This document shows, piece after piece, positions 9,805-60,253 of a stretch of 64,000 nucleotides of DNA. Position 1 is the stretch's first letter. Each line of letters begins with the position of its first letter. The notes beneath the pieces were generated by a model, which made no database searches, had not been told where the DNA came from, and worked only from the letters and a program-made list of their open reading frames with translations. The DNA lies in the NCBI GenBank assembly GCA_964482955.1, contig CAYZZW010000001.1, forward strand, positions 95,780-159,779, read 5' to 3'. Source of the DNA: an uncultured Treponemataceae bacterium (GTDB taxonomy: Bacteria > Spirochaetota > Spirochaetia > Treponematales > UBA12059). Both the position numbers and the translations under genes were made by a program.

Positions 9805-10770
9805 TCAGGCGCGCCCGTAGAGGAGGCGGCCGGAGTCGAAGGACGCCCTGAGTTCGCCCTTTTCCGCCAGCCAGGCTAGGTACGACCTGATCGTGCTCCC
9901 GACGAGGGCGTACTGGGCGTGGTTCATGGACAGGCCGTGTCGCCGCGCGGCGAAGGCGAGGACTTCGTCGGGGCCCGACGGCTCGCCGCAGGCTTCGAGG
10001 CAGAGCTCGGCGGTTTCCAGCACGCGGGCCCGGTTGTACGCGACGAGCGGCCGGATGTCCCGGGTCGGCTCGGCGTGGCTCGGCACGAACCAGTCGGCCT
10101 CGAAGGCTTCGAGCAGGTCGAAGGTGCGGAGCTGGGCTTCGATGTCGCGCAGGTAGAAGATCCGGTACTTGTCGAGGATGGCCTCGGAGGCGACCGTGTC
10201 GGCGCAAAAGAGGACGCGATCCGGCGTGAAGACGCCGATCATCCCGAGGAAATGCCCCGGCAGGGGCACGAGGGATAGCTCCGTGCCTGGCACCTGAGTG
10301 CCCGGCACCATACCCGGACCGGTGTCTGACACCGTGCCTGGCACCTGAGTGCCTGGCACCTGAGTGCCCGGCACCGTGCCCGGCGCGTCCAGGATGTCGT
10401 CCACGGCGCAGGGTTCGGCCATGAGGAACTTGGTGCGCAGCGCCTTGGGGGGATACCCGCCCCAGAGCAGGGAGGGCTCGAGGAAGGGATGCTCGATCAC
10501 GGCGGCTTCGAGCGCGGTGGCGCCCACGCGGCAACCCGTCCGCGCGCGGACGAAAGCCGCGCCGCCCGAGTGATCGGCGTTCGAATGCGTGAGGACGAGG
10601 CGATCGACGCGGAGCCCGGCCGCCTCGACGGCCTTGAGGAGACGGCGGCCCGCGTCGGCGTCGTTGCCCGCGTCGACGAGGGTCGCGCCGCCCGAGCCGT
10701 CCGCGACGAGACCGAGGTTCGTGGGCCCGCGCGCGACCGCGGTGCCGCCCGCGAGGGTTTCGAAGGTCAT
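9805..10770 (-). CDS. MBL-fold metallo-hydrolase carrying an in-frame VPGTQ repeat insertion
   Basis: This is the C-terminal 321 codons of the artefactual 877-aa ORF 9805..12438. The start is ATG 10770 (MTFETLAGG..). It has the HxHxDH motif (LTHSNADHSGG) and a later PLPGH. The insertion GTVPGTQVPGTQVPGTVSDTGPGMVPGTQVPGTE is encoded by palindromic repeats. Confidence 0.8.
   Translation of the reverse strand: MTFETLAGGTAVARGPTNLGLVADGSGGATLVDAGNDADAGRRLLKAVEAAGLRVDRLVLTHSNADHSGGAAFVRARTGCRVGATALEAAVIEHPFLEPSLLWGGYPPKALRTKFLMAEPCAVDDILDAPGTVPGTQVPGTQVPGTVSDTGPGMVPGTQVPGTELSLVPLPGHFLGMIGVFTPDRVLFCADTVASEAILDKYRIFYLRDIEAQLRTFDLLEAFEADWFVPSHAEPTRDIRPLVAYNRARVLETAELCLEACGEPSGPDEVLAFAARRHGLSMNHAQYALVGSTIRSYLAWLAEKGELRASFDSGRLLYGRA
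10281..10386. repeat. P palindromes (GTGCC[T/C]GGCAC, GGTGTCTGACACC) in a 15-bp in-frame tandem arrangement inside the MBL-fold CDS
   Basis: Seven palindrome copies were read directly from the sequence. They encode VPGTQ-type pentapeptides on the minus strand. Confidence 0.85.
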
Positions 10771-25785: not shown

Positions 25786-25874
25786 GCGGACGACTGCGCG
25801 GACGGCGCGTCACCGGGTGACGCCCAGGTGTTCGCGGCGTTGGCCCCGCGGGAATAAGCCCAGGACGAAGAGTT

Positions 25875-25930
25875 GCCACGAAGGACACGAAGTTCAGCCG
25901 CGAAGGGCACGAAGGAAGAGAAGAAGTAAT
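25875..25930. repeat. H element, copy b (left arm only)
   Basis: GCCACGAAGGACACGAAGttcaGCCGCGAAGGGCACGAAGGAAGAG. Confidence 0.7.
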
Positions 25931-25955
25931 ATAGTTTGAAGGCGTACTTACAGAG

Positions 25956-25986
25956 GCCCGCGGCGAATGTGCCGCGGGCTTTTTTC
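25956..25986 (+). terminator. intrinsic terminator after the M20 hydrolase gene (also the first part of the putP-flanking repeat)
   Basis: GCCCGCGGC-gaatgt-GCCGCGGGC followed by T6. Confidence 0.8.
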
Positions 25987-26115
25987 AAATTGGGCGTCGA
26001 GCGGAGCGAGACGGAAGGGGTAGCGGAAAGGAAAACCGTCGCGGACGCGGCGGCTTTCCTTGGAGCGAGGGGAAGACCTTCCCCTCCATAAAAATCGCGG
26101 GCGCTCCGGCGCGGG
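25956..26115 (+). repeat. putP-flanking direct repeat, upstream copy (uninterrupted)
   Basis: It consists of the terminator hairpin, then GGGCGTCGAGCGGAGCGAGACGGAAGGGGTAGCGGAAAGGAAAACCG, then ~30 nt, then GGAAGACCTTCCCCTCCATAAAAATCGCGGGCGC. Confidence 0.8.
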
Positions 26116-27896: not shown

Positions 27897-27926
27897 GCCC
27901 GCGGCGATGAGCTGCGGGCTTTTTTC
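27897..27926 (+). terminator. intrinsic terminator after putP (a repeat of the 25956 terminator)
   Basis: GCCCGCGGC-gatga-GCTGCGGGC followed by T6. Confidence 0.8.
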
Positions 27927-28084
27927 AATTGGGGCGTCGAGCGGAGCGAGACGGAAGGGGTAGCGGAAAAGAAAACCGGCGCGCACGCGCTCGAAAAGAA
28001 GGTTCGTGCAGGGATGACGCGATGCGCGACAGCGCATGAATCAATCCATTCCTCTCGGCAAACGACGCGAAGCGGCGTATGCAC

Positions 28085-28155
28085 GAACCACACGCGCCGA
28101 ACGCACGGCGTTCGGCGATGTCAAAAATCCGCATGGACGCGGATTTTTGACTGGG
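28085..28155 (+). repeat. K-element copy b (core only), nested inside the putP-flanking repeat
   Basis: GAACCACACGCGCCGAACGCacgGCGTTCGGCGATGTCAAAAATCCGCatggacGCGGATTTTTGAC. Confidence 0.75.
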
Positions 28156-28212
28156 GAAGGCTTTCCCCTCCATAAAAATCGCGGGCGCCCTTTCGGGGCG
28201 CCCGGAGCGATG

Positions 28213-28703: not shown

Positions 28704-28733
28704 GGATTATTTTGGCCGACTTTGAAAGAAATC

Positions 28734-28885
28734 CACCACGAAGGACACGAAGGTTTTGCCACGAAGAGCACGAAGAAGAGGAAATGTGGTTATCGGGAAC
28801 CGGTGGCTTTTCCCTTCTTCTTCCCCCTTCTTCCCCTTCGTGATCTTCGTGGCTGAACTTCGTGTCCTTCGTGGCTGTTTTCCTC
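28734..28885. repeat. H foldback element, copy c (complete)
   Basis: The left arm is CCACGAAGGACACGAAGgttttGCCACGAAGAGCACGAAGAAGAGG. The centre is about 30 nt. The right arm is CCTTCTTCCCCTTCGTGATCTTCGTGGCtgaaCTTCGTGTCCTTCGTGG. Confidence 0.8.
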
Positions 28886-30670: not shown

Positions 30671-30710
30671 GCGCGGAACGCGCTTGAAGAAAATGCCCGT
30701 GCACGACGCA

Positions 30711-30860
30711 CGGACCACACCAGCTGAACGCCCTGCGTTCAGCGATGTCAAAAATCTACAGGGACGTAGATTTTTGACTTGGGTGTTCCGCTGCAAATCC
30801 TCGGCGCGTCGTTCCTCCGCGCCTCCGGTTTTTCCGCTTCACCCCCTGGCGCTCGTCCTC
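30711..30860 (+). repeat. K-element copy c (core plus extension)
   Basis: GGACCACACCAGCTGAACGCcctGCGTTCAGCGATGTCAAAAATCTACagggacGTAGATTTTTGACTTGGGTG.., ending ..CACCCCCTGGCGC. Confidence 0.75.
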
Positions 30861-34171: not shown

Positions 34172-34178
34172 GAGCTTT

Positions 34179-34360
34179 ACCACGAAGGCCACGAAGTGCA
34201 GCCACGAAGGTCACGAAGGAAGAATGGTAGGAAAAAAGGGAAATATCATTCTTCGGATTTCAGATTCCGATTCTTCCAACCTCTTATCCCCTTCGTGTCC
34301 TTCGTGGTCAAACCTTCGTGCCCTAACGCTCGAGTACTCACTAAGCTTCGCTCGTGGTGA
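34179..34360. repeat. H foldback element, copy d (complete, with tail)
   Basis: ACCACGAAGGCCACGAAGtgcaGCCACGAAGGTCACGAAGGAAG .. CCCCTTCGTGTCCTTCGTGGtcaaaCCTTCGTGCC, followed by the AACGCTCGAGTACTCACTAAGCTTCGCTCGTGG tail. Confidence 0.8.
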
Positions 34361-37932: not shown

Positions 37933-37954
37933 GCGTTTTGGGGATTATCGGGAG

Positions 37955-38127
37955 GGTGCGGCGGACGATGTCGGAACGAATCAACCGAAGCGGTGGTGGT
38001 ATAGCTATCCACGCCGAATAGGCGAGAGTACTCGCAATATTCGGCGTGGATAGCTATACCACCACCCAGCGGTCGAATGCTGTACGTCATTGGGCGCCGG
38101 GTATCCCCGGTAATGCCGCATGACGGC
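37955..38127 (+). repeat. S-element copy C (structured repeat; candidate ncRNA or MITE)
   Basis: 5' GGTGCGGCGGACGATGTC.., a 29/29-bp hairpin at 37992..38066 (GGTGGTGGTATAGCTATCCACGCCGAATA / loop GGCGAGAGTACTCGCAA / perfect complement), and 3' ..GCCGCATGACGGC. Confidence 0.8.
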
Positions 38128-38344
38128 AGTGATGCCGGACGAGAAGCGGGGGCATGTATCCTGGCGGACTTTGGACTAGCTAAGACCCGGCTCATACGAT
38201 TCAAACAAGCTGGCGCCACCTTGACCCGGTAAGGCCGCACGCCTTGCCACGGGCCGATGGCCCGTGGCGGCGACGAGCTTCTTTCGTCGACCCCCTAAAG
38301 CGAAAGAATCGCCACAAGCTTTCGTTTACTAAGTACCGCCCGGA

Positions 38345-38432
38345 AGCTTCCTATCCCTAAATCCTTTCTCCCTCTTCCTTCGTGTTCTTCGTGTTCTTCG
38401 TGTTCTTCGTGTCCTTCGTGGTTGCCTTTCCG
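38345..38432 (+). repeat. H element, copy e (right arm; 9-bp unit CTTCGTGTT x3 plus variants)
   Basis: AGCTTCCTATCCCTAAATCC..CTCTTCCTTCGTGTTCTTCGTGTTCTTCGTGTTCTTCGTGTCCTTCGTGG. Confidence 0.8.
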
Positions 38433-38471
38433 CGGGACGCCCGGGAGCCGAAGACGTGGCGGCCGCGGGGG

Positions 38472-51878: not shown

Positions 51879-52087
51879 TGCGTTCCTCCTGGTCTGGGCG
51901 TTGTAATGATAAACCGCCCGTTTTTCGGCGGCCGTGACGAGAAAATCCTGAAACTGAACCCCAGACCTCCATATAAGCACGGTTTCCGCGTATCGTCAAC
52001 CATGAGACGTCTCCGCGTGCCGCCAGACGGTTCGCCCTTCCGCCCTGCGGCTCAGATTACAACGAGCGGGCTTAAACCGAGAGAAGA

Positions 52088-52261
52088 ATGCGGCGGACGG
52101 GTGTCGAACCGGATCAACCCGGGTTTGGGGCATACAAGTACCCGTGACGAATAGGCGAGAGTACTCGCGATATTCGTCGCGGGTACTTGTATGCCCCAGC
52201 CGGCGGTCGCAACCGTTTCGCCATCGGGCGCGGCCTGACGCCAGTAAAGCCGCACGACGGC
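52088..52261 (+). repeat. S-element copy B
   Basis: ATGCGGCGGACGGGTGTC.., a hairpin at 52127..52197 (26/27 bp, loop GGCGAGAGTACTCGCGA), and ..GCCGCACGACGGC. Confidence 0.8.
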
Positions 52262-52323
52262 AAGCAGGCCACATCTCTGTAGTGCGGTTCCATCTTGCAC
52301 CAGGCTCCGGCCGGCATTAACCC

Positions 52324-52454
52324 GGTGTCTGACACCTTTTCGTCGGTGTCTGACACTTTCCCGCCGGGTGCCTGGCACCTTCTCGTCCGACCGGTGCCTG
52401 GCACCTGCTGCGGACTGGTGCCTGGCACCTTTACGTTCGGCCGGTGCCTGGCAG
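52324..52454. repeat. array of six P palindromes (2x GGTGTCTGACAC[C/T], 4x GGTGCCTGGCA[CC/G]) at 21-26 bp spacing
   Basis: The copies start at about 52324, 52345, 52367, 52393, 52417 and 52443. The array is intergenic, between S-element B and the stop codon of the PtsN-like gene. Confidence 0.85.
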
Positions 52455-52461
52455 CGGCGGT

Positions 52462-53004
52462 TCAACCGTTTTCCCAGGAGCGTTCGACGTCTTCGACGAA
52501 GGCGAGGAGGCGGGATTGGGCCGGGCGTTCGGCGAGGAGGGCGCGGAAGTCATCCATGCGGCAGAGGTAAGAGAGGCGGGAAAGCGTCGCGAGGTGGTTC
52601 TTCGAAGAGGCGGAGAGGATGAGGAAAAGTACGGAGACCGGCGTGCGGTCGAGGGCGCCGTATTCGACGGGGGGATCGAGGAAGAACACTGCGACGCGCT
52701 CGTCGGCTTCGTCTCGCAGCAAGGGTGTCCGCGGATGTGGAAACGCGATACCGCGCCCGACCGCGGTCGAATTCATCGCTTCGCGGTCGAGAAGGGCGGC
52801 GAGCAAGCCAGGCTTGTCCGTTCCCTGCGCCAGGTCGAGCAGATCGACCGCGCGCTCCAGCACCAGCGAGACCGCCGCGGTGGCCCTTCCTGCACCCCCG
52901 GCGCTGCCGTGTGCTGATGCGTCGTAGTCGAGGGCGCTACCCGGCGCGGCTAGGCGGTGGACGCCGCCGCGCGTCATCAGCGTACCGATCGAAGCTTGCG
53001 GCAT
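52462..53004 (-). CDS. PTS EIIA type-2 domain protein (PtsN-like)
   Basis: A 180-aa ORF. GRGIAFPHPR carries the phosphorylatable His, and VLFLILSASSKNHLATLSRL is typical of the family. The exact start is uncertain. Confidence 0.7.
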   Translation of the reverse strand: MPQASIGTLMTRGGVHRLAAPGSALDYDASAHGSAGGAGRATAAVSLVLERAVDLLDLAQGTDKPGLLAALLDREAMNSTAVGRGIAFPHPRTPLLRDEADERVAVFFLDPPVEYGALDRTPVSVLFLILSASSKNHLATLSRLSYLCRMDDFRALLAERPAQSRLLAFVEDVERSWENG

Positions 53005-53026
53005 GGCGCCCGAACCGCCGTCCAGC

Positions 53027-53554
53027 CTAAAAGGTGCGAAGTTCCATGCCGGGCCAGCGCGTTTCCAGCTCGGCGGAAATACCGGCGTCGAACGAGCGCG
53101 ACAGCGCGACCGGCAGCAGGAACGTGAAGTTCCGCGTCATGGTGTAGGTGCCGATGTACGTAATGGTGCCCGGCTCGACTATCAGGTTTTCTTTCGGGAT
53201 GTCCGGATATACGCAATCCGCCAAGATGGTTTTCTTGCCGTCCGGGCGGTAGTGGTACATGTAAAACGCGAATATTTCGTATTCGCCGGCTTCCAGCTCG
53301 AACAAGCCCTCGAGCGTGTCCCCTGACAGAACGTACTGGAACACCTTGCCGTCTGAGACGCGGTGCAATTCCACCATGAGCCGGTCCGCCGTCTTTCCGG
53401 TCTCGCCGGTCTGCCGCGCGTACAGGTAGGCTTTGGCCGGATCGACGTCGGGCTGACTACGCGTGGCGTACACACGTTTGGACATGGACACGCAGGAAGC
53501 AAGGATGAGCGCTGTCGCTACAGCCGCGATGATGTATTTGGTTACGATGCGCAC
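53027..53554 (-). CDS. hypothetical lipoprotein
   Basis: A 175-aa ORF with a GTG start after a GGAG SD. It has a lipobox (ALILASC). Confidence 0.6.
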   Translation of the reverse strand: MRIVTKYIIAAVATALILASCVSMSKRVYATRSQPDVDPAKAYLYARQTGETGKTADRLMVELHRVSDGKVFQYVLSGDTLEGLFELEAGEYEIFAFYMYHYRPDGKKTILADCVYPDIPKENLIVEPGTITYIGTYTMTRNFTFLLPVALSRSFDAGISAELETRWPGMELRTF

Positions 53555-53657
53555 GATACGACTCCGTTTGAAACACAGTCTTGTGCCGACTTACGCCGGC
53601 CCGTCCAGCATGGCGGGCGGGCGAAGGCGTGTCAATCAGCGTCAAACGCGCCCGGAT

Positions 53658-53685
53658 AAAAAAGCGCCCCCGTTGCCGGGGGCGC
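53658..53685 (-). terminator. intrinsic terminator after the porin gene
   Basis: On the minus strand: GCGCCCCCG-gcaa-CGGGGGCGC followed by T6. Confidence 0.8.
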
Positions 53686-53708
53686 CCACTATCAGGAACT
53701 AAGCGAGC

Positions 53709-55205
53709 TTAGTACTCGATGGTGCAGGAGACGGTGAAGAGACCCTTGTCGACGTCCTTGTGGAAGGGCGTGACGAAGAGGTATTCGTCGTCGGCGAGGG
53801 AGCCGGCTTCGAACTGGACGTTGAACGTCGTCTTGGCGATGACGTTGATGTCAGCACCGACCACGATGTGGAGACCGTTGTCCGTGTCGACGTCCTTGGC
53901 GCCGTAGAGACCGTAGTCGAAACCGGCGTACGGCTTCACGGTCTTGCCTTCTTCAATGGCGTACTCGTATTCGGCGTAAGCGCCGAGCATAACGGGCATG
54001 CCTTCCATGGCGGGGTTTTCCTCGTCAAGGAGGTGAAGGGCGTTCACGTAGGCGGTGGCGCCGAGACCGGGGACAAAGCCTTCGGCCGTGTCTTCGGAAA
54101 CCTTGAACCCGAGGTTGAGAACGGAAGTGTCCTTGTCCTGGGTGTGGTAGATGTCGGCGCCGACGGTGTTCTCGGTGGCCGGAACGAAGTACACGCTGAG
54201 GGTAGCGCTGTCCTTGTTCGCCATCGTGTAGGTGGCGGCGAGGCTGATGTCCATGACGGGGTCGAGCTCGCCGGCGATCACGACGTCGAGACCGGCGCCG
54301 ATTTCCACGCCTTCCATCGGCTTCACGGTGATGCCGAGGCCAGCGCCCTTGTTGGCGCCTTCGGCGGCGTCCCAGAGGTCGGCGAAGACGCCGATCACGA
54401 CTTCGACCATCTCCATCGGGGTGATGGTGACATCGGCGCCGATCATGTACTTGGCATCGACGTTGTTCGTACCAGCGGGATCACCGGGGGTGGCGGGGGT
54501 AACGACACCGTACACCTCACCGACAGCGATACCACCATCACCGGCCGCCCACGGAGCGTGGGTGGCGGTGTTGATGTAGCCGGCCGCGATGGCGTCAGCC
54601 TCAGGAATGGCGGCCGTAGCGACAACCCAGCTCACGGACGCGGGGGTGTCGGTGCCGGCAGCGGTGGCGCTGTCATAGGAACCATCGGAGCCGATGTTGA
54701 GGTTGAACTTCACCATCTCGGTGTCGTAACCGACGGAGATGCCGCCCACGGTGCTGGTGGCGCCGGTTTCGGACTGCCACGAAGCGTCTTCCCACGCGTC
54801 CACGCTGACCGGCTCGAACATGGTGGCCATGTTGTAGCCGAAGCTGGGCTCGGAGTAGATGCCGACCCAGAGGGCGCCGGCGATGATCTTGGCGGTGATG
54901 GACGGCGCGGTGTACTTAACGGTGCCGGCGGCGATGTTCTCGGTCTTGCCCGTCATGATGGCCTTGAAACCGTCGAACTCGATCCAGCCGTACACGCCCT
55001 CGAGACCTTCAGTGGCCTTGGTGGTCTTGGCGACGAGCGGGATGGTCAGGGCGAACGACGCGTCGTTCAGGAAGCCATGCGAATCATCGTTGAGGTTGTA
55101 ACCCCAAGTAACCGAGGCGTCTCCCTCGATGGTCCACGTCTCGCCTTCGGCGAAGGCGATACCGGTCAAGCAGAGAGCAAGAAGCAGCACGATAGCTTTC
55201 TTCAT
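53709..55205 (-). CDS. abundant outer-membrane beta-barrel protein / porin (Msp/Tpr-like by pattern)
   Basis: Based on ORF 53709..55301, with the start at ATG 55205 (MKKAIVLLLALCLTGIAFA-EGE), 7 nt after AGGAGGA. It has alternating Gly/aromatic strands and a terminal ..SCTIEY. A near-consensus promoter (TTGACA-N17-TATACT) and a strong terminator flank it. Confidence 0.65.
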   Translation of the reverse strand: MKKAIVLLLALCLTGIAFAEGETWTIEGDASVTWGYNLNDDSHGFLNDASFALTIPLVAKTTKATEGLEGVYGWIEFDGFKAIMTGKTENIAAGTVKYTAPSITAKIIAGALWVGIYSEPSFGYNMATMFEPVSVDAWEDASWQSETGATSTVGGISVGYDTEMVKFNLNIGSDGSYDSATAAGTDTPASVSWVVATAAIPEADAIAAGYINTATHAPWAAGDGGIAVGEVYGVVTPATPGDPAGTNNVDAKYMIGADVTITPMEMVEVVIGVFADLWDAAEGANKGAGLGITVKPMEGVEIGAGLDVVIAGELDPVMDISLAATYTMANKDSATLSVYFVPATENTVGADIYHTQDKDTSVLNLGFKVSEDTAEGFVPGLGATAYVNALHLLDEENPAMEGMPVMLGAYAEYEYAIEEGKTVKPYAGFDYGLYGAKDVDTDNGLHIVVGADINVIAKTTFNVQFEAGSLADDEYLFVTPFHKDVDKGLFTVSCTIEY

Positions 55206-55272
55206 TGCTATCCTCCTTACGAAAATACGGGGAAGAACCGACGGTTCGTTGTGTCCCCTTCCATTTTCCAGG

Positions 55273-55301
55273 AGTATAGAACTCGTAAAAATCGATGTCA
55301 A
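55273..55301 (-). promoter_or_regulatory. near-consensus promoter TTGACA-N17-TATACT of the porin gene
   Basis: Read on the minus strand within an AT-rich island. A ~60-nt leader and an AGGAGGA SD follow. Confidence 0.7.
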
Positions 55302-55462
55302 GGATTATTTGTAACCTTCGGCGGCCAGGATTTTTTGATTCTTTCGTCTTGCATGCGGCGCATTTCGTTATCTGACAGAACATTACTAAAACCGGCCCAA
55401 TTTGCGGCACTTTGACATAATTAAAATAAATGTAAAAGAACAGAATAAATCGGTACACGAGC

Positions 55463-55501
55463 GGCGGGACTTGTTCACCCCGTGAACAAGTCCCGCCTTT
55501 T
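55463..55501 (+). terminator. plus-oriented terminator-like hairpin with no annotated plus-strand gene upstream
   Basis: GGCGGGACTTGTTCAC-ccc-GTGAACAAGTCCCGCC followed by TTTT on the plus strand only. Confidence 0.45.
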
Positions 55502-55538
55502 CATCGATGCCGCGGGTCGGGAGCTCCGCTCCAAGTCC

Positions 55539-56738
55539 TTATGCTTTGGACCACTCGCGGACGGCGCGGGCGAAGGCTTCCGCGCTGTTAGTTATGGAAG
55601 ATTCCGAAACGCAGTAGGCCATGCGGAACCAGCCGGGGCAGCCGAAGCCGACGCCGGGGACGGCCAGGATGTTGTATTTCTTGAGATGCATGACGAAGTC
55701 GACGTCGTCCACGCTCGGGCCGCCCGCGGGCACCTGGCAGAAAAGGTAAAAGGCGCCTTCGGGCTTCGTGAAGGCGATGCCGGCCTTCCGGACGATGTCC
55801 GAGAGGAGGTCGCGGCGGCGACAGTAGCTCGTGGTATCCGCCATGCAGCCTTCCAGCTTCACGACGACCCGCTGCATGAGGGCGGGGGCGTTCACGAAGC
55901 CGAGGGTGCGGTTGGACATGGCCAGGCCGTCCAGGAGGAGCTTGCGGTCCGCGCAGGCGGGGGAAACGGCCAGATAGCCGATGCGTTCGCCGGGCAGGGA
56001 GAGGCTTTTCGAGTAGCTGTACGCCACGACGGTTTCCGGGTACGCGTCCATGATGGGCGGGGCGACGGCGCCGTCGTACACGAGTTCGCGGTAGGGTTCG
56101 TCGACGACCAGATAAGGAAGGCGGCCGCAGGCTTGGCCGTGTTTCAGGAGGGCCGCGGCGATGGCTTCGATGTCCGTACGGCTGTAGATGCGGCCAGTGG
56201 GGTTGTTCGGGGTGTTGACGATGAGGGCGGCGGTGCGCGGGGTGAGGGCGCGCGCGATGGCGTCCACGTCCGGGGAAAAGTCGGGCTTGGTGGCGACGCC
56301 GACGAGGTGGCCGCCGTGGTTCTTGATGTACGGCCCGTATTCCGCGAAGTAGGGCTTCAGGACGATGACTTCATCCATGGGGTTGAGGATGGTCCGCAGG
56401 AGGACGTTGAGGGCGCCGGCGGCCCCCACCGTGACGATGATGCCGTCGGCTTTCAAGTCCACGGCGTGGTCTTTGGAGGTCTTGCGGGCGGCGGATTCGC
56501 GCATGGGCATGAAGCCGGCGTTGGACAGGTAGCCGTGGAGTCCTTTTTCGGGGGAGGACGCCAGCTCGAGAAGGGCTTTTTTGAACTCGGCGGGAGGTTC
56601 CACGTCCGGGTTGCCCAAGGAAAAGTCGTAGACTTTGTCCGGTCCGAACTGGGCGCGGAGCTTGGCGCCTTCTTCGAACATCTTGCGGATCCACGAGGAT
56701 TTTTCGAGATCGGTGCGTATGGAGTCGGCTACCGGCAT
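55539..56738 (-). CDS. pyridoxal phosphate-dependent aminotransferase (class I, AspC/AlaT-like)
   Basis: Based on ORF 55539..57074, with the start at ATG 56738 (MPVADSIRTDLEKSSWIRKMFEEG), after a GGAGGA SD. It has NPNNPTG-type (NTPNNPTGR) and SYSKSLSLPGERIGY motifs. Confidence 0.85.
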   Translation of the reverse strand: MPVADSIRTDLEKSSWIRKMFEEGAKLRAQFGPDKVYDFSLGNPDVEPPAEFKKALLELASSPEKGLHGYLSNAGFMPMRESAARKTSKDHAVDLKADGIIVTVGAAGALNVLLRTILNPMDEVIVLKPYFAEYGPYIKNHGGHLVGVATKPDFSPDVDAIARALTPRTAALIVNTPNNPTGRIYSRTDIEAIAAALLKHGQACGRLPYLVVDEPYRELVYDGAVAPPIMDAYPETVVAYSYSKSLSLPGERIGYLAVSPACADRKLLLDGLAMSNRTLGFVNAPALMQRVVVKLEGCMADTTSYCRRRDLLSDIVRKAGIAFTKPEGAFYLFCQVPAGGPSVDDVDFVMHLKKYNILAVPGVGFGCPGWFRMAYCVSESSITNSAEAFARAVREWSKA

Positions 56739-56890
56739 GGGTTCCTCCGTCGAACGAGTTTCTACCATATATATGCGTGGTATTCGGTCGATCAAACCGA
56801 CCGAATGTCGGGGCGGCGGCCGGCGACGCGGAAGTGTACCACGGCTTTTGGTATCAAGCCACTGCGATTCGCGTAACCGGAGCGTAGTTC

Positions 56891-57127
56891 GAGGCGATTC
56901 GGGGGTGTGCGGCGGACGAGTGTCGGACCGGATGGACCGGGGCGTGGGGCATACCAGTACCCATGACGAATAGGCGAGAGTACTCGCAATATTCGCCATG
57001 GGTACTGGTATGCCCCACCCGACGGTCGCATGCGGTGCGCCATCGGGAGCCGGATGGCCCCGGAAACGCCGCACGACGGCTCGCAGATCGAACGAATCGC
57101 GGTGGGCTTGGTTGGGCTATGGACCGA
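56891..57127 (+). repeat. S-element copy A (longest form, with an outer GCGATTCG/CGAATCGC pairing)
   Basis: A hairpin at 56946..57016 (26/27 bp) has the same apical module. GTGCGGCG at 56907 is complementary to CGCCGCAC at ~57067. Confidence 0.8.
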
Positions 57128-57145
57128 CCAGTAAGACACCCCACC

Positions 57146-57184
57146 GGTGCCTGGCACCCTCTGGCCGACCCGGTGCCTGGCACC
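57146..57184. repeat. two P palindromes (GGTGCCTGGCACC) 26 bp apart
   Basis: They lie directly to the right of S-element A and upstream of the Rpn gene. Confidence 0.8.
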
Positions 57185-57238
57185 ACGTGCCCATGCGCCA
57201 ATGCCCTCCTCCGCCGTTACTCAGGCGGAGGCACCACC

Positions 57239-58213
57239 ATGTCACAGTCTTTCAAGTTGCTCGATGTGTTCGTCCGATGGCTGTTCTCGCGGCCGGGCAA
57301 CGAGCAGATCCTGCTCGCGTTCCTGAACGCCGTCATGCGCGACGCGAAGGAGACGGAACTCGCCGCGGTCAAGGTCTTGAACCCTTTCAATCCCGGCGAA
57401 TACAAGGGCGAAAAGGAGTTCATCCTGGACGTCGCCGCGAAGGATTCGCACGGCCGTCTCTTCGACTTCGAAATCCAGTCGTACCGCGAGGAGGATTACG
57501 CCAAGCGGGCGCTCGCCTACTGGGCGCGGCTCCATGCGAGCCAGCTCCGGAAAGGCGACGACTACCTCGACGTCCATCCGACCGTCGGCGTCCACCTGTG
57601 CGACTACAACAACCATCCCGAGATCGCGGAAGGTCACCTGATCGTCGACGCCACCTTTCGCGGCCATCCCGACATTCTCGCCTCGGACGACTTCCAGCTC
57701 CATTTCGTCGAGCTGCCGAAATACTACGACCGTTCGGGCAAGCGAGGGCTGTCGGACTTGGAAAAGTGGGCCGTATGGTTTACTTTTGAACCGGAGAAGG
57801 ACGACACCATGAGCGACCGCCCCTGGCTCCCGGAAGACCTCCGGGACGACCCCCAGTTCATCGATCTCGAAAAGCAATACCGCGAGTTCTGCACGGACGA
57901 AGAGCTCCGCTACATCGCCGAAAGCCGTTTCCGCTTCATCACCGACGTCGCGAACGAAAAGTCGTGGGCCCGGCGCCATGGTTTCGCCGAGGGCAAGGAA
58001 CAAGGTCTTGCTGTAGGAAAAGCTGAAGGCAGGGTCGAAGGCAGGGTCGAAGGCAGGGCTGAAGGCAGGGCTGAAGGCAAAGCCGAAGGGAAAATCGAAG
58101 GTTTGGAAGAAGGCAAATTGGAAGTCGCACGCAAGCTCAAAGCCGCGGGCATGTCCATAGAGCAGATTGTCGAGTTTACCGGACTTGAGCCAACCGCGAT
58201 TCAAGGGCTTTGA
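57239..58213 (+). CDS. Rpn family recombination-promoting nuclease / putative transposase (PD-(D/E)XK; T. denticola-type family)
   Basis: Based on ORF 56963..58213, with the start at ATG 57239 after GGAGG. The N-terminus is FKLLDVFVRWLFSRPGNEQILLAFLNAV. The nuclease core is ILDVAAKDSHGRLFDFEIQ. The C-terminal repeat EGRVEGRVEGRAEGRAEGKAEGKIEGLEEGKLEVARKLK is typical of this family. The GC content looks lower than in neighbouring genes. Confidence 0.75.
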   Translation: MSQSFKLLDVFVRWLFSRPGNEQILLAFLNAVMRDAKETELAAVKVLNPFNPGEYKGEKEFILDVAAKDSHGRLFDFEIQSYREEDYAKRALAYWARLHASQLRKGDDYLDVHPTVGVHLCDYNNHPEIAEGHLIVDATFRGHPDILASDDFQLHFVELPKYYDRSGKRGLSDLEKWAVWFTFEPEKDDTMSDRPWLPEDLRDDPQFIDLEKQYREFCTDEELRYIAESRFRFITDVANEKSWARRHGFAEGKEQGLAVGKAEGRVEGRVEGRAEGRAEGKAEGKIEGLEEGKLEVARKLKAAGMSIEQIVEFTGLEPTAIQGL

Positions 58214-58221
58214 TCTTCGTT

Positions 58222-58590
58222 GAGGCGATTCGGAGGTGTACGGCGGACGAGTGTCGGACCGGATGGACCGGGGCGTGGGGCATACCAGTACCCATGACGA
58301 ATAGGCGAGAGTACTCGCAAAGCAACGTCGCGGGCAGCAATTCGAAGCACTGAAAACCCTCGTGACGCTTTCCGGAAAGGTGCGGCGATTTTATTAGGAC
58401 CGTATAGGTCGGGTCCTGTCGCTGAAAAAAGCATGGTATCATTCGGAGTACCTCACGATACCATGCTTTTTTCACGCCACCCGACCCGACGCATTCGATC
58501 CTACAAGCTGGCGCCGGATGGCCTCAGAAACGCCGCACGACGGCTCGGAGGCCAACGAATTGCGGCGGGCTTTATTCGACTATGGATCGG
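58222..58590 (+). repeat. S-element D: a truncated unit D1 (58222..58320) joined to a divergent complete unit D2 (58374..58590)
   Basis: D1 is nearly identical to the left half of copy A and stops exactly after the apical module GGCGAGAGTACTCGCAA. D2 has GGAAAGGTGCGGCGA.., a different hairpin, and the conserved right flank GCCGGATGGCC..CGCCGCACGACGGC. Confidence 0.75.
58425..58472. terminator. bidirectional terminator-like hairpin (the hairpin of divergent S-element unit D2)
   Basis: AAAAAAGCATGGTATC-16 nt loop-GATACCATGCTTTTTT. Confidence 0.55.
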
Positions 58591-58747: not shown

Positions 58748-59392
58748 ATGAAGGTTTCGAGCGTCGTGGGAATCGTGGCGTCGGCGGCCGCGGTCGTGGC
58801 GGTAGCGGTCGCCGTGATCGCGGTGGCGGTTACGAAAAAAGCGCCGTCGCCGGAAGTCGTGAAGCGCGAATTCACGGCGTACGTGGAAACGTTGGCGCCC
58901 GCCGGGTGGCTCGTCCTGGTCGAGGGGCGCGAGCGCCTGGTCGTGCGGGATACCGTGAAGGGCCAGCTGTTCGGGAACACGATGCTCGGGGAGTTCCTCA
59001 AGATACGGTCGGACGCGGTCATCGAAGTCGAAGCGTGGGCGGACACGCTGTACGGCGTGCGGCTCGAGCCTGCCGCTTGGTCGTTCGCGGTCGACCCGCG
59101 ACCGAAGCGGCTGTCCGTATCGGCGCCGGCGCTCGAAGCCCGTACGCCGGCCATCCTCACCGAAACGATCACCGTCCGGCTCGTCGACAAATCGATACTC
59201 GTGAACGAGGCGAAGGTCGCGGAATCGATGAAAGCGGCGCTCACCGCGCGTTTCATCGAATACGCCGCAAGCCGCGCGGGCGCGGCGGATACCCAGACGA
59301 AGGCCACGGACGGTCTGCGGAATATCGTAATGGGCTTTTTGAAGAAAGCGGACCTTGTCGCGGAAGCGGTGGACGTGACGTTCGGGCGATAG
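58748..59392 (+). CDS. membrane-anchored hypothetical protein (DUF4230-like)
   Basis: Based on ORF 58712..59392, with the start at ATG 58748 (MKVSSVVGIVASAAAVVAVAVAVIAVAV TM). The leaderless-type promoter TTGCGG-N17-GACAAT-N7-ATG lies upstream. The family name is tentative. Confidence 0.55.
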   Translation: MKVSSVVGIVASAAAVVAVAVAVIAVAVTKKAPSPEVVKREFTAYVETLAPAGWLVLVEGRERLVVRDTVKGQLFGNTMLGEFLKIRSDAVIEVEAWADTLYGVRLEPAAWSFAVDPRPKRLSVSAPALEARTPAILTETITVRLVDKSILVNEAKVAESMKAALTARFIEYAASRAGAADTQTKATDGLRNIVMGFLKKADLVAEAVDVTFGR

Positions 59393-59590
59393 GAAAGGTG
59401 CGGCGAACTATATCGAAGCGGATTGACCGGGACCTGGGGCATACAAGCACCCGCTACAAATAGGCGAGAGTACTCGCAATATTTGTAGTGGGTACTTGTA
59501 TGCCCCACCCGGCTGGTTCATTCGGTTCGTCATCGGGAGCCGGATGTCCCCAGTAACGACGCACGACGGCACGCAGGCCGCCGAATCGCG
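59392..59590 (+). repeat. S-element copy E
   Basis: It starts at the last base of the TAG stop of the upstream gene. The hairpin at 59436..59506 pairs 25/27 bp and has the same apical module. The 3' end is ..GACGCACGACGGC..CGAATCGCG. Confidence 0.8.
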
Positions 59591-59737
59591 TTCAGCTCCA
59601 TTTCATAAAGACCAAACTATACGACCGCGGACAGTCTCATGCGTTTTCCTAAATACCCTCACGCTATCCCCGAAGCTCGTCGATTCACTGAGTCCGAACA
59701 AACCGCGGCGAGCTAATAAGGACTAAGGACCGTCAAA

Positions 59738-59812
59738 GCCTTCCTATCTTAAGCCCTCTTACTCTTCCTTCGTGTCCTTCGTGTCCTTCGGGTCCTTCGT
59801 GGTAGATTTTCC
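59738..59812 (+). repeat. H element, copy g (right arm)
   Basis: GCCTTCCTATCTTAAGCCCTCTTACTCTTCCTTCGTGTCCTTCGTGTCCTTCGGGTCCTTCGTGG. Its left part aligns with copy e. Confidence 0.8.
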
Positions 59813-59847
59813 TCGGCGGATCGGTTTCATCGGCGGTCGGTTTCTTC

Positions 59848-59877
59848 TTGAACAGCGGGGGTGAAAAGCCGTACTAT
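59848..59877 (+). promoter_or_regulatory. leaderless-type promoter TTGAAC-N18-TACTAT-N7-ATG (bactofilin)
   Basis: The -10 box ends 7 nt before ATG 59885. This supports that start over GTG 59861. Confidence 0.5.
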
Positions 59878-59884
59878 CGGGGGC

Positions 59885-60253
59885 ATGAGCGACATTCAGA
59901 TCTCCAACATCGACGAGGATCTCCTCGACACGGTGCTGGCGCCGGACGTCGAGTTCTCCGGAACCATCGTCTTCAAGAAGCCCTTCATGATCAAAGGCCG
60001 CGTGAGCGGCGTCATCAAGGCCGAAAGCGAGCTGTTCATCGACGACAAGGCCGTGGTGGAAGCCTCCATCACCGCGGAGTCCGTATCGGTGCGCGGCACG
60101 GTCAAGGGCGACATCGTGGCCCGCAAGCGGGTGGACCTGTTCGCCTGCTGTTCGGTGCAGGGCGACATCACCGCGCCCGAGGTGGCGATGGAGACGGGCT
60201 GCCACTACAACGGCATCTGCACGATGACGGGCAAGCGGGATGACGTCCGCTAG
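59885..60253 (+). CDS. bactofilin (polymer-forming cytoskeletal protein)
   Basis: Based on ORF 59861..60253, with the start preferred at ATG 59885 (MSDIQISNIDED..). It has the beta-helical repeat FSGTIVF..IKGRVSGVI..VVEASITAESVSVRGTVKGDIVA..VQGDITAPEVAME. Confidence 0.8.
   Translation: MSDIQISNIDEDLLDTVLAPDVEFSGTIVFKKPFMIKGRVSGVIKAESELFIDDKAVVEASITAESVSVRGTVKGDIVARKRVDLFACCSVQGDITAPEVAMETGCHYNGICTMTGKRDDVR

Follow-up and report, generated by a model that had tools for sequence, protein, structure and literature searches.

Does a nuclease gene that lies between copies of a repeat form a mobile unit with them, or do the gene and the repeats simply lie side by side? The question is raised by a 64,000-nucleotide stretch of DNA from an uncultured Treponemataceae bacterium (GCA_964482955.1, contig CAYZZW010000001.1, positions 95,780 to 159,779), referred to here as the window. 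At 57239-58213 on its + strand, the window carries a gene for a 324-residue PD-(D/E)XK nuclease of the Rpn family, a type of gene that is also labelled 'putative transposase'. A sequence-only reading had pointed out that this gene is bracketed by S-elements, a family of hairpin-forming repeats, and this description holds. S-element A ends about 110 nt ahead of the Rpn ATG, with two GGTGCCTGGCACC palindromes in between, and the partial element D1 begins 8 nt past the TGA (58211-58213), and is nearly identical to the left half of A. The S sequences on the two sides are in direct orientation, and an independent metagenome contig, L001, shows the arrangement again.

The further proposal, that the S-elements could mark the borders of a mobile or recombination unit, fares less well. 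S-elements are present without an Rpn gene at 37.95 kb (between the GGDEF and MarC genes), at 52.08 kb (between the 2-hydroxyacid dehydrogenase and PTS-EIIA genes) and at 59.39 kb (between the genes for hyp214, a protein without functional annotation, and bactofilin). An Rpn homologue in another metagenome contig, L002, has no S-element in its flanks, and no recombinase, target-site duplication or attC core site was found in the window. In our judgement it is probable that an ordinary Rpn gene and a set of dispersed repeats have come to lie side by side, and that the cassette-like look is a by-product of repeat spread and recombination rather than the sign of a new mobile unit. This agrees with the published view that rpn genes lack both terminal inverted repeats and target-site duplications, vary in their ends and do not move on their own, with recombination or hitch-hiking proposed as the route (PMC10400941).

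The S-element family in the window

A profile built from full S copies has exactly six matches in the window, each of them on the + strand. The complete elements match at 37951-38134 (S38k), 52083-52268 (S52k), 56902-57087 (S-element A) and 59393-59577 (S59k), the partial element D1 at 58233-58335, and a variant, D2var, at 58375-58551. The profile scores are 177-194 bits on the + strand vs 48-63 bits on the - strand (188 vs 57 bits in nhmmer for S-element A), so the orientation of the S-elements is well defined. The window has no usable GC skew from which a replication-strand bias could be read.

S-element A (56891-57130, +), as delimited by folding, nhmmer and alignment of the copies, consists of a complete hairpin with its closing stem at 56893-57103 and a 3' tail module that extends to about 57130. 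The hairpin, of about 180-210 nt, folds with -150.5 kcal/mol (z = -9.6). Its apical loop contains the 21-nt motif AATAGGCGAGAGTACTCGCAA (56969-56989, +), which forms a mini-hairpin of its own, GCGAG-AGUA-CUCGC (z = -4.5), and which occurs five times in the window (four exact copies and one that has a single mismatch), where 0.00 would be expected. Of the 34 pairs in the upper helix, 12 have changes on both sides, and 94.8% of the cells are paired, which none of 500 shuffles matched; the lower helices are kept by sequence conservation, not by covariation. Folding is about as favourable for one strand as for the other, and their G-U counts are similar. A small open reading frame (ORF) in the S-element was considered and rejected, since indels between the copies break the frame. 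No Rfam family matches the S-elements: at gathering score only two tRNAs are found in the window, and at E<=10 only chance-level matches to microRNAs or long non-coding RNAs are added. The 3' tail module (CGAAyGAATCGCGG...GACTAaGGACCG) is found 120-170 nt away from the hairpin in two gaps (59596-59740 and 38150-38340), and it is seemingly duplicated in the gap at 59.6 kb.

The S sequence downstream of Rpn had been read as a single element, D, split by an insertion, and this has to be revised. D1 (58222-58320, +) is an orphan left half, which nhmmer aligns to model positions 2-102 only. Its 99 nt are 98% identical to 56891-56989, and it stops right after the apical loop (…CTCGCAA|AGCAACG), with no matching right arm downstream. 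The position of the breakpoint is shared by L001. D2var (58374-58590, +) is a complete, self-contained variant hairpin (-92 kcal/mol; 36 bits over the full model), which has the family base GGTGCGGCG...CGCCGCACGACGGC and the tail, but a different upper stem. The top of this hairpin (58423-58474) is a perfect stem of 18-20 bp flanked by A6 and U6 (-30.1 kcal/mol, z = -8.1), and resembles an intrinsic terminator that would act in both directions between Rpn and hyp214. S59k (59390-59600, +; 193.5 bits in nhmmer) starts at the stop codon of hyp214.

The genes next to S-elements between 37.9 and 59.6 kb, Rpn apart, encode GGDEF, MarC, 2-Hacid_dh, PTS_EIIA_2, aminotransferase, hyp214 and bactofilin proteins. 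As most of these neighbours are ordinary genes, a preference of S-elements for accessory genes, which had been offered as the fallback explanation of the bracket, is unsupported. Pfam scans of the remaining window genes identified chemotaxis, c-di-GMP, transport and metabolic functions, and no transposase, integrase or second Rpn. S-elements occupy 5 of the 29 intergenic gaps of at least 50 nt. The bracketing of a gene named beforehand has P~0.025 under these conditions, and about 0.7 bracketed genes are expected per such window, so that the bracketing of Rpn exceeds chance only weakly. The hyp214 gene is likewise bracketed by S-elements. Other intergenic repeats form brackets as well. The direct-repeat pairs 25967-26049 / 27907-27989 (83 nt, 92%) and 28081-28156 / 30708-30783 (76 nt, 83%, with a terminator-like hairpin) flank an SSF symporter gene and the next genes, and bracketing by intergenic repeats is thus not unique to Rpn in this genome.

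S-elements are best described as lineage-restricted, dispersed hairpin repeats of about 210-250 nt, of the same kind as repetitive extragenic palindromic (REP) sequences, ERIC and transposable elements of the miniature inverted-repeat type (MITEs), but longer and with an unusual conservation pattern. Like REP/BIME/REPIN, ERIC, the Neisseria Correia elements, the Rickettsia palindromic elements (RPE) and MITEs, they are non-coding, multi-copy, intergenic and hairpin-folding. They also share with interspersed palindromic repeats and MITEs that they often lie right after stop codons, are present or absent by lineage, recombine with each other and break assemblies. A unit of a GTAG- or CGTC-tagged REP or REPIN is 20-40 nt long, with a stem of 8-9 bp, a loop of 4-5 nt and a terminal tag (PMC3733652), whereas the S-element is about 210 nt long. 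It is a single long hairpin with a conserved loop and base and a variable but compensated upper stem. Membership among the CGTC-tagged REPs was rejected on the architecture of the unit: on the - strand a CGTC is adjacent to the basal stem, but the basal 8-mers are about 160 nt apart in a unit of about 210 nt. As in MITEs, the ends are inverted repeats, the whole S-element being an imperfect inverted repeat, and orthologous sites with and without the element are found (see below). Unlike MITEs, S-elements have no known cognate transposase, and a parent insertion sequence or transposase with matching ends is absent from the window. When the boundaries of the five full copies were aligned, no direct repeats, and hence no target-site duplication, were detected there, although these boundaries are fuzzy and the negative is a weak one. 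With their long compensated hairpin, near-invariant loop and uniform orientation, S-elements are an undescribed, lineage-restricted structured repeat.

Insertion sites, synteny and probable exchange between copies

Synteny was traced via hyp214 (58748-59392, +), a membrane-anchored protein of 214 aa. The aminotransferase gene (55542-56741) is uninformative alone, because the closest relatives (73% and 59%) share only that gene; after a 100% match on a 161-kb NCBI contig, its next-best matches, at 73% and about 60%, are to metagenome-assembled genomes of Spirochaetia and Treponema. Homologues of hyp214 with 62-69% identity are encoded directly upstream of bactofilin-TPR-MtaB in two relatives, L252 and L255. 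In L252 (GCA_026398615.1) the order is BrkB-cNMP, Metallophos, hyp216, bactofilin, TPR, MtaB and a 373-aa protein, collinear with the window at 58.8-64 kb. The gap between the hyp214 and bactofilin genes measures 492 nt in the window, whereas in L252 and L255 it measures 49 and 79 nt, and neither of the two relatives has an S-element in it. The extra sequence in the window, about 455 nt, is composite, with an S hairpin, tails and 9-nt repeats. A bactofilin promoter of the form TTGxxx-N17/18-TAxTAT-N8-ATG is kept in all three gaps. The empty orthologous gaps and the kept promoter indicate that S59k and its trailing modules are a lineage-specific insertion, and that hyp-bactofilin-TPR-MtaB is conserved backbone. 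It follows that the block from 56.9 to 59.6 kb, which had been suspected of being one insertion, is not a single one, since hyp214 belongs to the backbone.

Upstream of hyp214, the BrkB-Metallophos pair is conserved in L252-L254, and upstream of the aminotransferase gene, a membrane protein of 175-179 aa is conserved in L004 and L005. Neither the pair nor the membrane protein is encoded in the window. The 2-kb segment with S-element A, Rpn, D1 and D2var thus lies at the junction of two synteny blocks. The S profile has no match in about 70 kb of DNA from relatives, and the exact AATAGGCGAGAGTACTCGCAA motif has no match in 185,579 species-representative genomes, the JGI metagenomes and IMG/VR. 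A degenerate gapped pattern yielded 238 loci, which were discarded as chance matches in GC-rich DNA, as the S profile matched none of them.

The contig L001 (ENA ERZ27286469, 1,431 bp) covers the loop and right arm of S-element A, the palindromes, Rpn, D1 and the start of D2var, in the same order as in the window. Its divergence from the window is a mosaic. The upper stem of A (56960-57027) shows 82% identity; both arms have changes, and these leave the pairing intact. The lower right arm of A, the palindromes and the N-domain of Rpn (57028-57945) are 98.9% identical. From 57946 onwards, in the Rpn C-terminus, identity drops to about 52% in the helix-turn-helix region and four 12-nt repeats are missing in L001, and the D1/D2var region (58214-58445) is again about 82% identical. 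The 5' part of D1 matches S-element A in the window, whereas the 5' part of D1 in L001 does not. The mosaic and the pattern at the 5' part of D1 suggest that S copies exchange sequence, and we regard them as clear signs of gene conversion among copies.

Further evidence on the copies comes from the Logan contigs of SRR10083292-96, which are 100% identical to the window and end inside S hairpins, at k-mer distance from shared sequence. These are L003 (window 52182-56939), L246 and L249-L251. S-elements limit the contiguity of short-read assemblies of this lineage.

From the identities, the copy distribution, the empty sites, the mosaic and the synteny break, we infer the following course of events. 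S-elements would have colonised many intergenic gaps irrespective of the neighbouring genes. The bracket around Rpn would have arisen from S copies in three consecutive gaps, together with a duplication of the left half of A behind Rpn, and gene conversion would have kept D1 nearly identical to A, or re-made it so. The S copies would serve as portable homology, with recombination between them that needs no dedicated recombinase. Such recombination would explain why the divergence from L001 is a mosaic, why there is an orphan half-element, why the left halves are nearly identical and why the Rpn segment lies at a synteny breakpoint. It may have placed Rpn at this breakpoint, and could also remove it. 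How rpn genes move is an open point in the literature (PMC10400941), and the locus provides a concrete case, of modest value, in which dispersed hairpin repeats give direct homology on either side of an rpn gene at a synteny breakpoint.

The Rpn gene and its product

The assignment to the Rpn family, made before from the sequence, is borne out by matches well above the curated cutoffs, to TIGR01784 (3e-37; 128.8 bits, cutoff 52.1) and to PF12784 PDDEXK_2 (1e-34; 120.4 bits, cutoff 27.4). The PD-(D/E)XK-type catalytic pattern D ... E-x-Q/K is present (D64, E78, Q80). In an alignment of the protein with 16 homologues (17 sequences), D9, D64, E78, Q80 and R90 are invariant, which indicates that the catalytic core is intact. 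The closest homologues are those of L001 and then L002, at 50% identity, and all others are at most 34% identical. No viral relatives were found, nor any relatives of solved structure by sequence. The Rpn gene has no match in PADLOC, and the locus is not a defence island.

The protein shares many features with the YhgA-like Rpn proteins (E. coli RpnA-E and plasmid-encoded RpnP2; Kingston et al. 2017, PMC5350276; Zhong et al. 2023, PMC10400941). These are the PD-(D/E)XK N-domain with D...E-x-Q, a C-terminal tract of 4-aa repeats that vary in number between close relatives, a divergent helical or helix-turn-helix tail, and a patchily distributed single-gene accessory locus without terminal inverted repeats or a target-site duplication of its own. 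It differs from them in belonging to the PF12784/TIGR01784 (COG5464-type) branch and not to PF04754, in its low similarity to anything outside the two metagenome contigs, and in lying outside a defence island, without a PADLOC hit. The best supported description is that of a solitary, accessory, ordinary family member with intact catalytic residues. Homology leads us to infer that the product most likely acts as a toxic DNase of the Rpn type that restrains itself.

The C-terminal repeats are 12-nt tandem units, encoding 4 aa (xEGR/K), at 58025-58101 (+; Tandem Repeats Finder). Their number varies from 0 to 12 among homologues, and the tract also varies between close relatives: L001 has four units fewer than the window, a 48-nt indel. 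Beyond the repeats, the C-terminal helix-turn-helix region is strongly diverged from L001, while the N-domain is about 99% identical. The gene is less GC-rich than the window, as had been noticed (59.3% vs 66.3%). Its N-domain has a host-like GC content at third codon positions (GC3, 0.83), resembling the neighbours, and only the C-terminal 89 codons (57944-58213) are atypical in this respect (GC3 0.56). The low GC content is explained by the amino-acid composition (GC content at second codon positions 0.37) together with these 89 codons. The diverged C-terminus behind a nearly identical N-domain, and the GC3 contrast, indicate an exchange of the C-terminus, probably a domain swap through recombination. 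Rpn proteins are hypervariable in repeat number and C-terminal domain (PMC10400941), and the differences between the window and L001 agree with this.

Characterised Rpn nucleases have an internally started short form, RpnS, which begins 8-20 aa ahead of the repeats (PMC10400941). In the window gene, the sole plausible internal ATG is that of M191 (57809-57811, +), which is preceded by GGAGAAGGA, similar to a Shine-Dalgarno sequence, and would give a C-terminal product of 134 aa. However, M191 sits 67 aa ahead of the repeats and is not conserved in the 50% homologue (P0002). Several more distant homologues have a Met closer to the repeats, which the window gene lacks, and no in-frame ATG, GTG or TTG is found between residues 192 and 288. 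With no such codon 8-20 aa before the repeats, an RpnS-type start is not evident. The hairpin CCUCCGCC/GGCGGAGG (57208-57231, +; fold of 57186-57250, -21.2 kcal/mol, z = -2.2) is predicted to sequester the Shine-Dalgarno sequence 8 nt before the Rpn ATG. It is identical in L001, and might hold back the translation of a toxic nuclease.

Alternative explanations and smaller repeats

Several points weigh against the view that the S-elements are passive repeats which bracket Rpn by coincidence. The near-invariant loop and the 12 compensated pairs may mean that S-elements are under selection or templated homogenisation, and perhaps are not mere passive repeats. If S sequences were placed at random, three consecutive gaps would contain them with P~0.02-0.07, which amounts to a mild local enrichment near Rpn and hyp214. 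The 99-nt direct repeat flanks a 1,331-bp unit made up of one full S hairpin and Rpn, as a cassette model predicts, and D1 is cut precisely at the hairpin apex both in the window and in L001. Moreover, the comparison covers 64 kb of this genome and one sister contig of 1.4 kb, and the relatives used for synteny are distant, at 60-86% amino acid identity.

The first alternative is that S-elements are functional structured RNAs or cis-elements, such as stabilisers of 3' untranslated regions, terminators, insulators or a family of small RNAs. Their placement at Rpn would in that case have to do with controlling the expression of a toxic gene rather than with DNA mobility. The preserved loop, exact in four copies and with one mismatch in the fifth, and the compensatory changes in the upper stem fit this explanation, and so does the orientation, which is the same in all six copies and matches that of downstream + strand genes in 4 of 5 gaps. 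Two copies begin 0-8 nt past a stop codon, D2var has a terminator-like top, and a hairpin that sequesters the Shine-Dalgarno sequence precedes Rpn. However, Rfam has no match even at E<=10, the two strands fold equally well without G-U asymmetry, a promoter-like site was not found, and S52k lies antisense to the genes on either side of it. In relatives that have these genes and this promoter, the orthologous gaps lack the elements. Selfish repeats typically show half copies, duplicated tails and a copy number that breaks assemblies, and arm-to-arm compensation in palindromes arises at the DNA level as well. In view of these points, we consider an RNA or cis-regulatory role unlikely to account for the arrangement.

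Less likely still is a true cassette. It would consist of the right arm of A, the palindromes, Rpn and the left arm D1, a circularisable unit of 1,331 bp that moves in and out of S-elements. Recombination would take place in the left arm or at the apical loop, possibly in a Campbell-type event via the 99-nt homology or in an attC-like, hairpin-directed event, and possibly with the aid of Rpn. The direct repeat of 98% identity around the unit, the end of D1 exactly past the apical loop in two contigs and the position at a synteny breakpoint speak for such a unit, and the way in which rpn genes move leaves room for it (PMC10400941). The block of 0.9 kb at 98.9% identity inside flanks of about 82% could reflect a recent exchange of the core of the unit. 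However, this block begins in the middle of the right arm, at 57028, instead of at the loop, and the upper stem differs on both of its arms, so the loop was not the crossover point. Only a single instance is available, as L001 represents the same locus and not an independent insertion. D1 has no right arm behind it, S-elements elsewhere flank core genes, and the 50% homologue of Rpn has no S-elements. Integrases, attC R/L core sites and target-site duplications were not found among the window genes scanned and at the S copies.

The arrangement was also compared with integron cassettes (an ORF plus attC). The likeness lies in the imperfect palindrome right behind the ORF, the uniform orientation, a structure that is more conserved than the stem sequence, and a hypothetical circle of one ORF and one hairpin. 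In contrast to integrons, there is no cassette array and no IntI, an integrase domain being absent from the window genes scanned, and between the S-elements lie core genes with promoters of their own. Membership in the attC group was rejected, because RYYYAAC is not found in or near any S copy and a single stray GTTRRRY is all that is present. That the 1,331-bp unit is swapped between S-elements without an integrase, at the left arm or apex, possibly via Rpn acting on extruded S hairpins, appears very improbable. If true, it would amount to a hairpin-addressed route for the mobility of rpn genes, and only such a cassette, or S-elements as substrates of the nuclease, would surprise a specialist.

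Finally, a mis-joining of the metagenome-assembled genome at repeats can practically be set aside: every short-read contig of this genome breaks off within an S hairpin, the left arm of A and D1 share 80 identical nt, an ambiguous path for short k-mers, and the exact Rpn protein is recorded only from the NCBI contig and not from Logan, but L001 (another sample, k=141) is continuous from the loop of A via Rpn and D1 into D2var, L003 has A-specific single-nucleotide polymorphisms beside the aminotransferase gene, and L249-251 and L246 confirm the joins from D2var through hyp214 and S59k to bactofilin, so that L001 and the Logan contigs independently support each join.

The two GGTGCCTGGCACC palindromes between S-element A and Rpn (57146-57158 and 57172-57184) are 26 nt apart, with 0.07 chance matches expected in the window. 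Arrays of the GGTGCCTGGCACC motif are also found at 52326-52455 and 10282-10380. A role as sigma-54 promoter was rejected by inspection, as the GG-N10-GC spacing is not present. More generally, 13-nt palindromes GGTGYCTGRCACC form arrays with a spacing of 20-26 nt at 10282-10380, 52326-52455 and 57146-57184. The array at 10282-10380 lies in frame within a gene for an MBL-fold protein (PF00753; 9805-12438, -), where it encodes PGTVPGTQVPGTQVPGT. In this it resembles the intragenic palindromic elements (RPE) of Rickettsia.

The bactofilin promoter of the window, TTGAAC-N18-TACTAT (59849-59887), ends 8 nt before the ATG; its counterparts are at 10664-10703 in L252 and at 500-540 in L255. The short spacing between promoter and ATG suggests leaderless or near-leaderless mRNAs, and -10-like boxes are also seen near the start codons of MarC and hyp214.

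A further repeat consists of 9-nt TCCTTCGTG units (complement CACGAAGGA), which are arranged in tandem arrays and as inverted pairs and occur in many gaps between genes. These units and the GGTGYCTGRCACC palindromes are small repeat families that share gaps with S-elements. Arrays are found at 25873-25934, 28728-28882, 34176-34311, 38369-38444 and 59766-59816 of the window, and at 770-850 and 2170-2290 of L004. In L252 and L255, the orthologous gap between hyp214 and bactofilin has no such arrays. Three of the arrays lie 3' of an S-element and just 5' of the promoter of a gene. A purine-rich motif akin to TCCTTCGTG is present in gaps of the relative with 73% identity.

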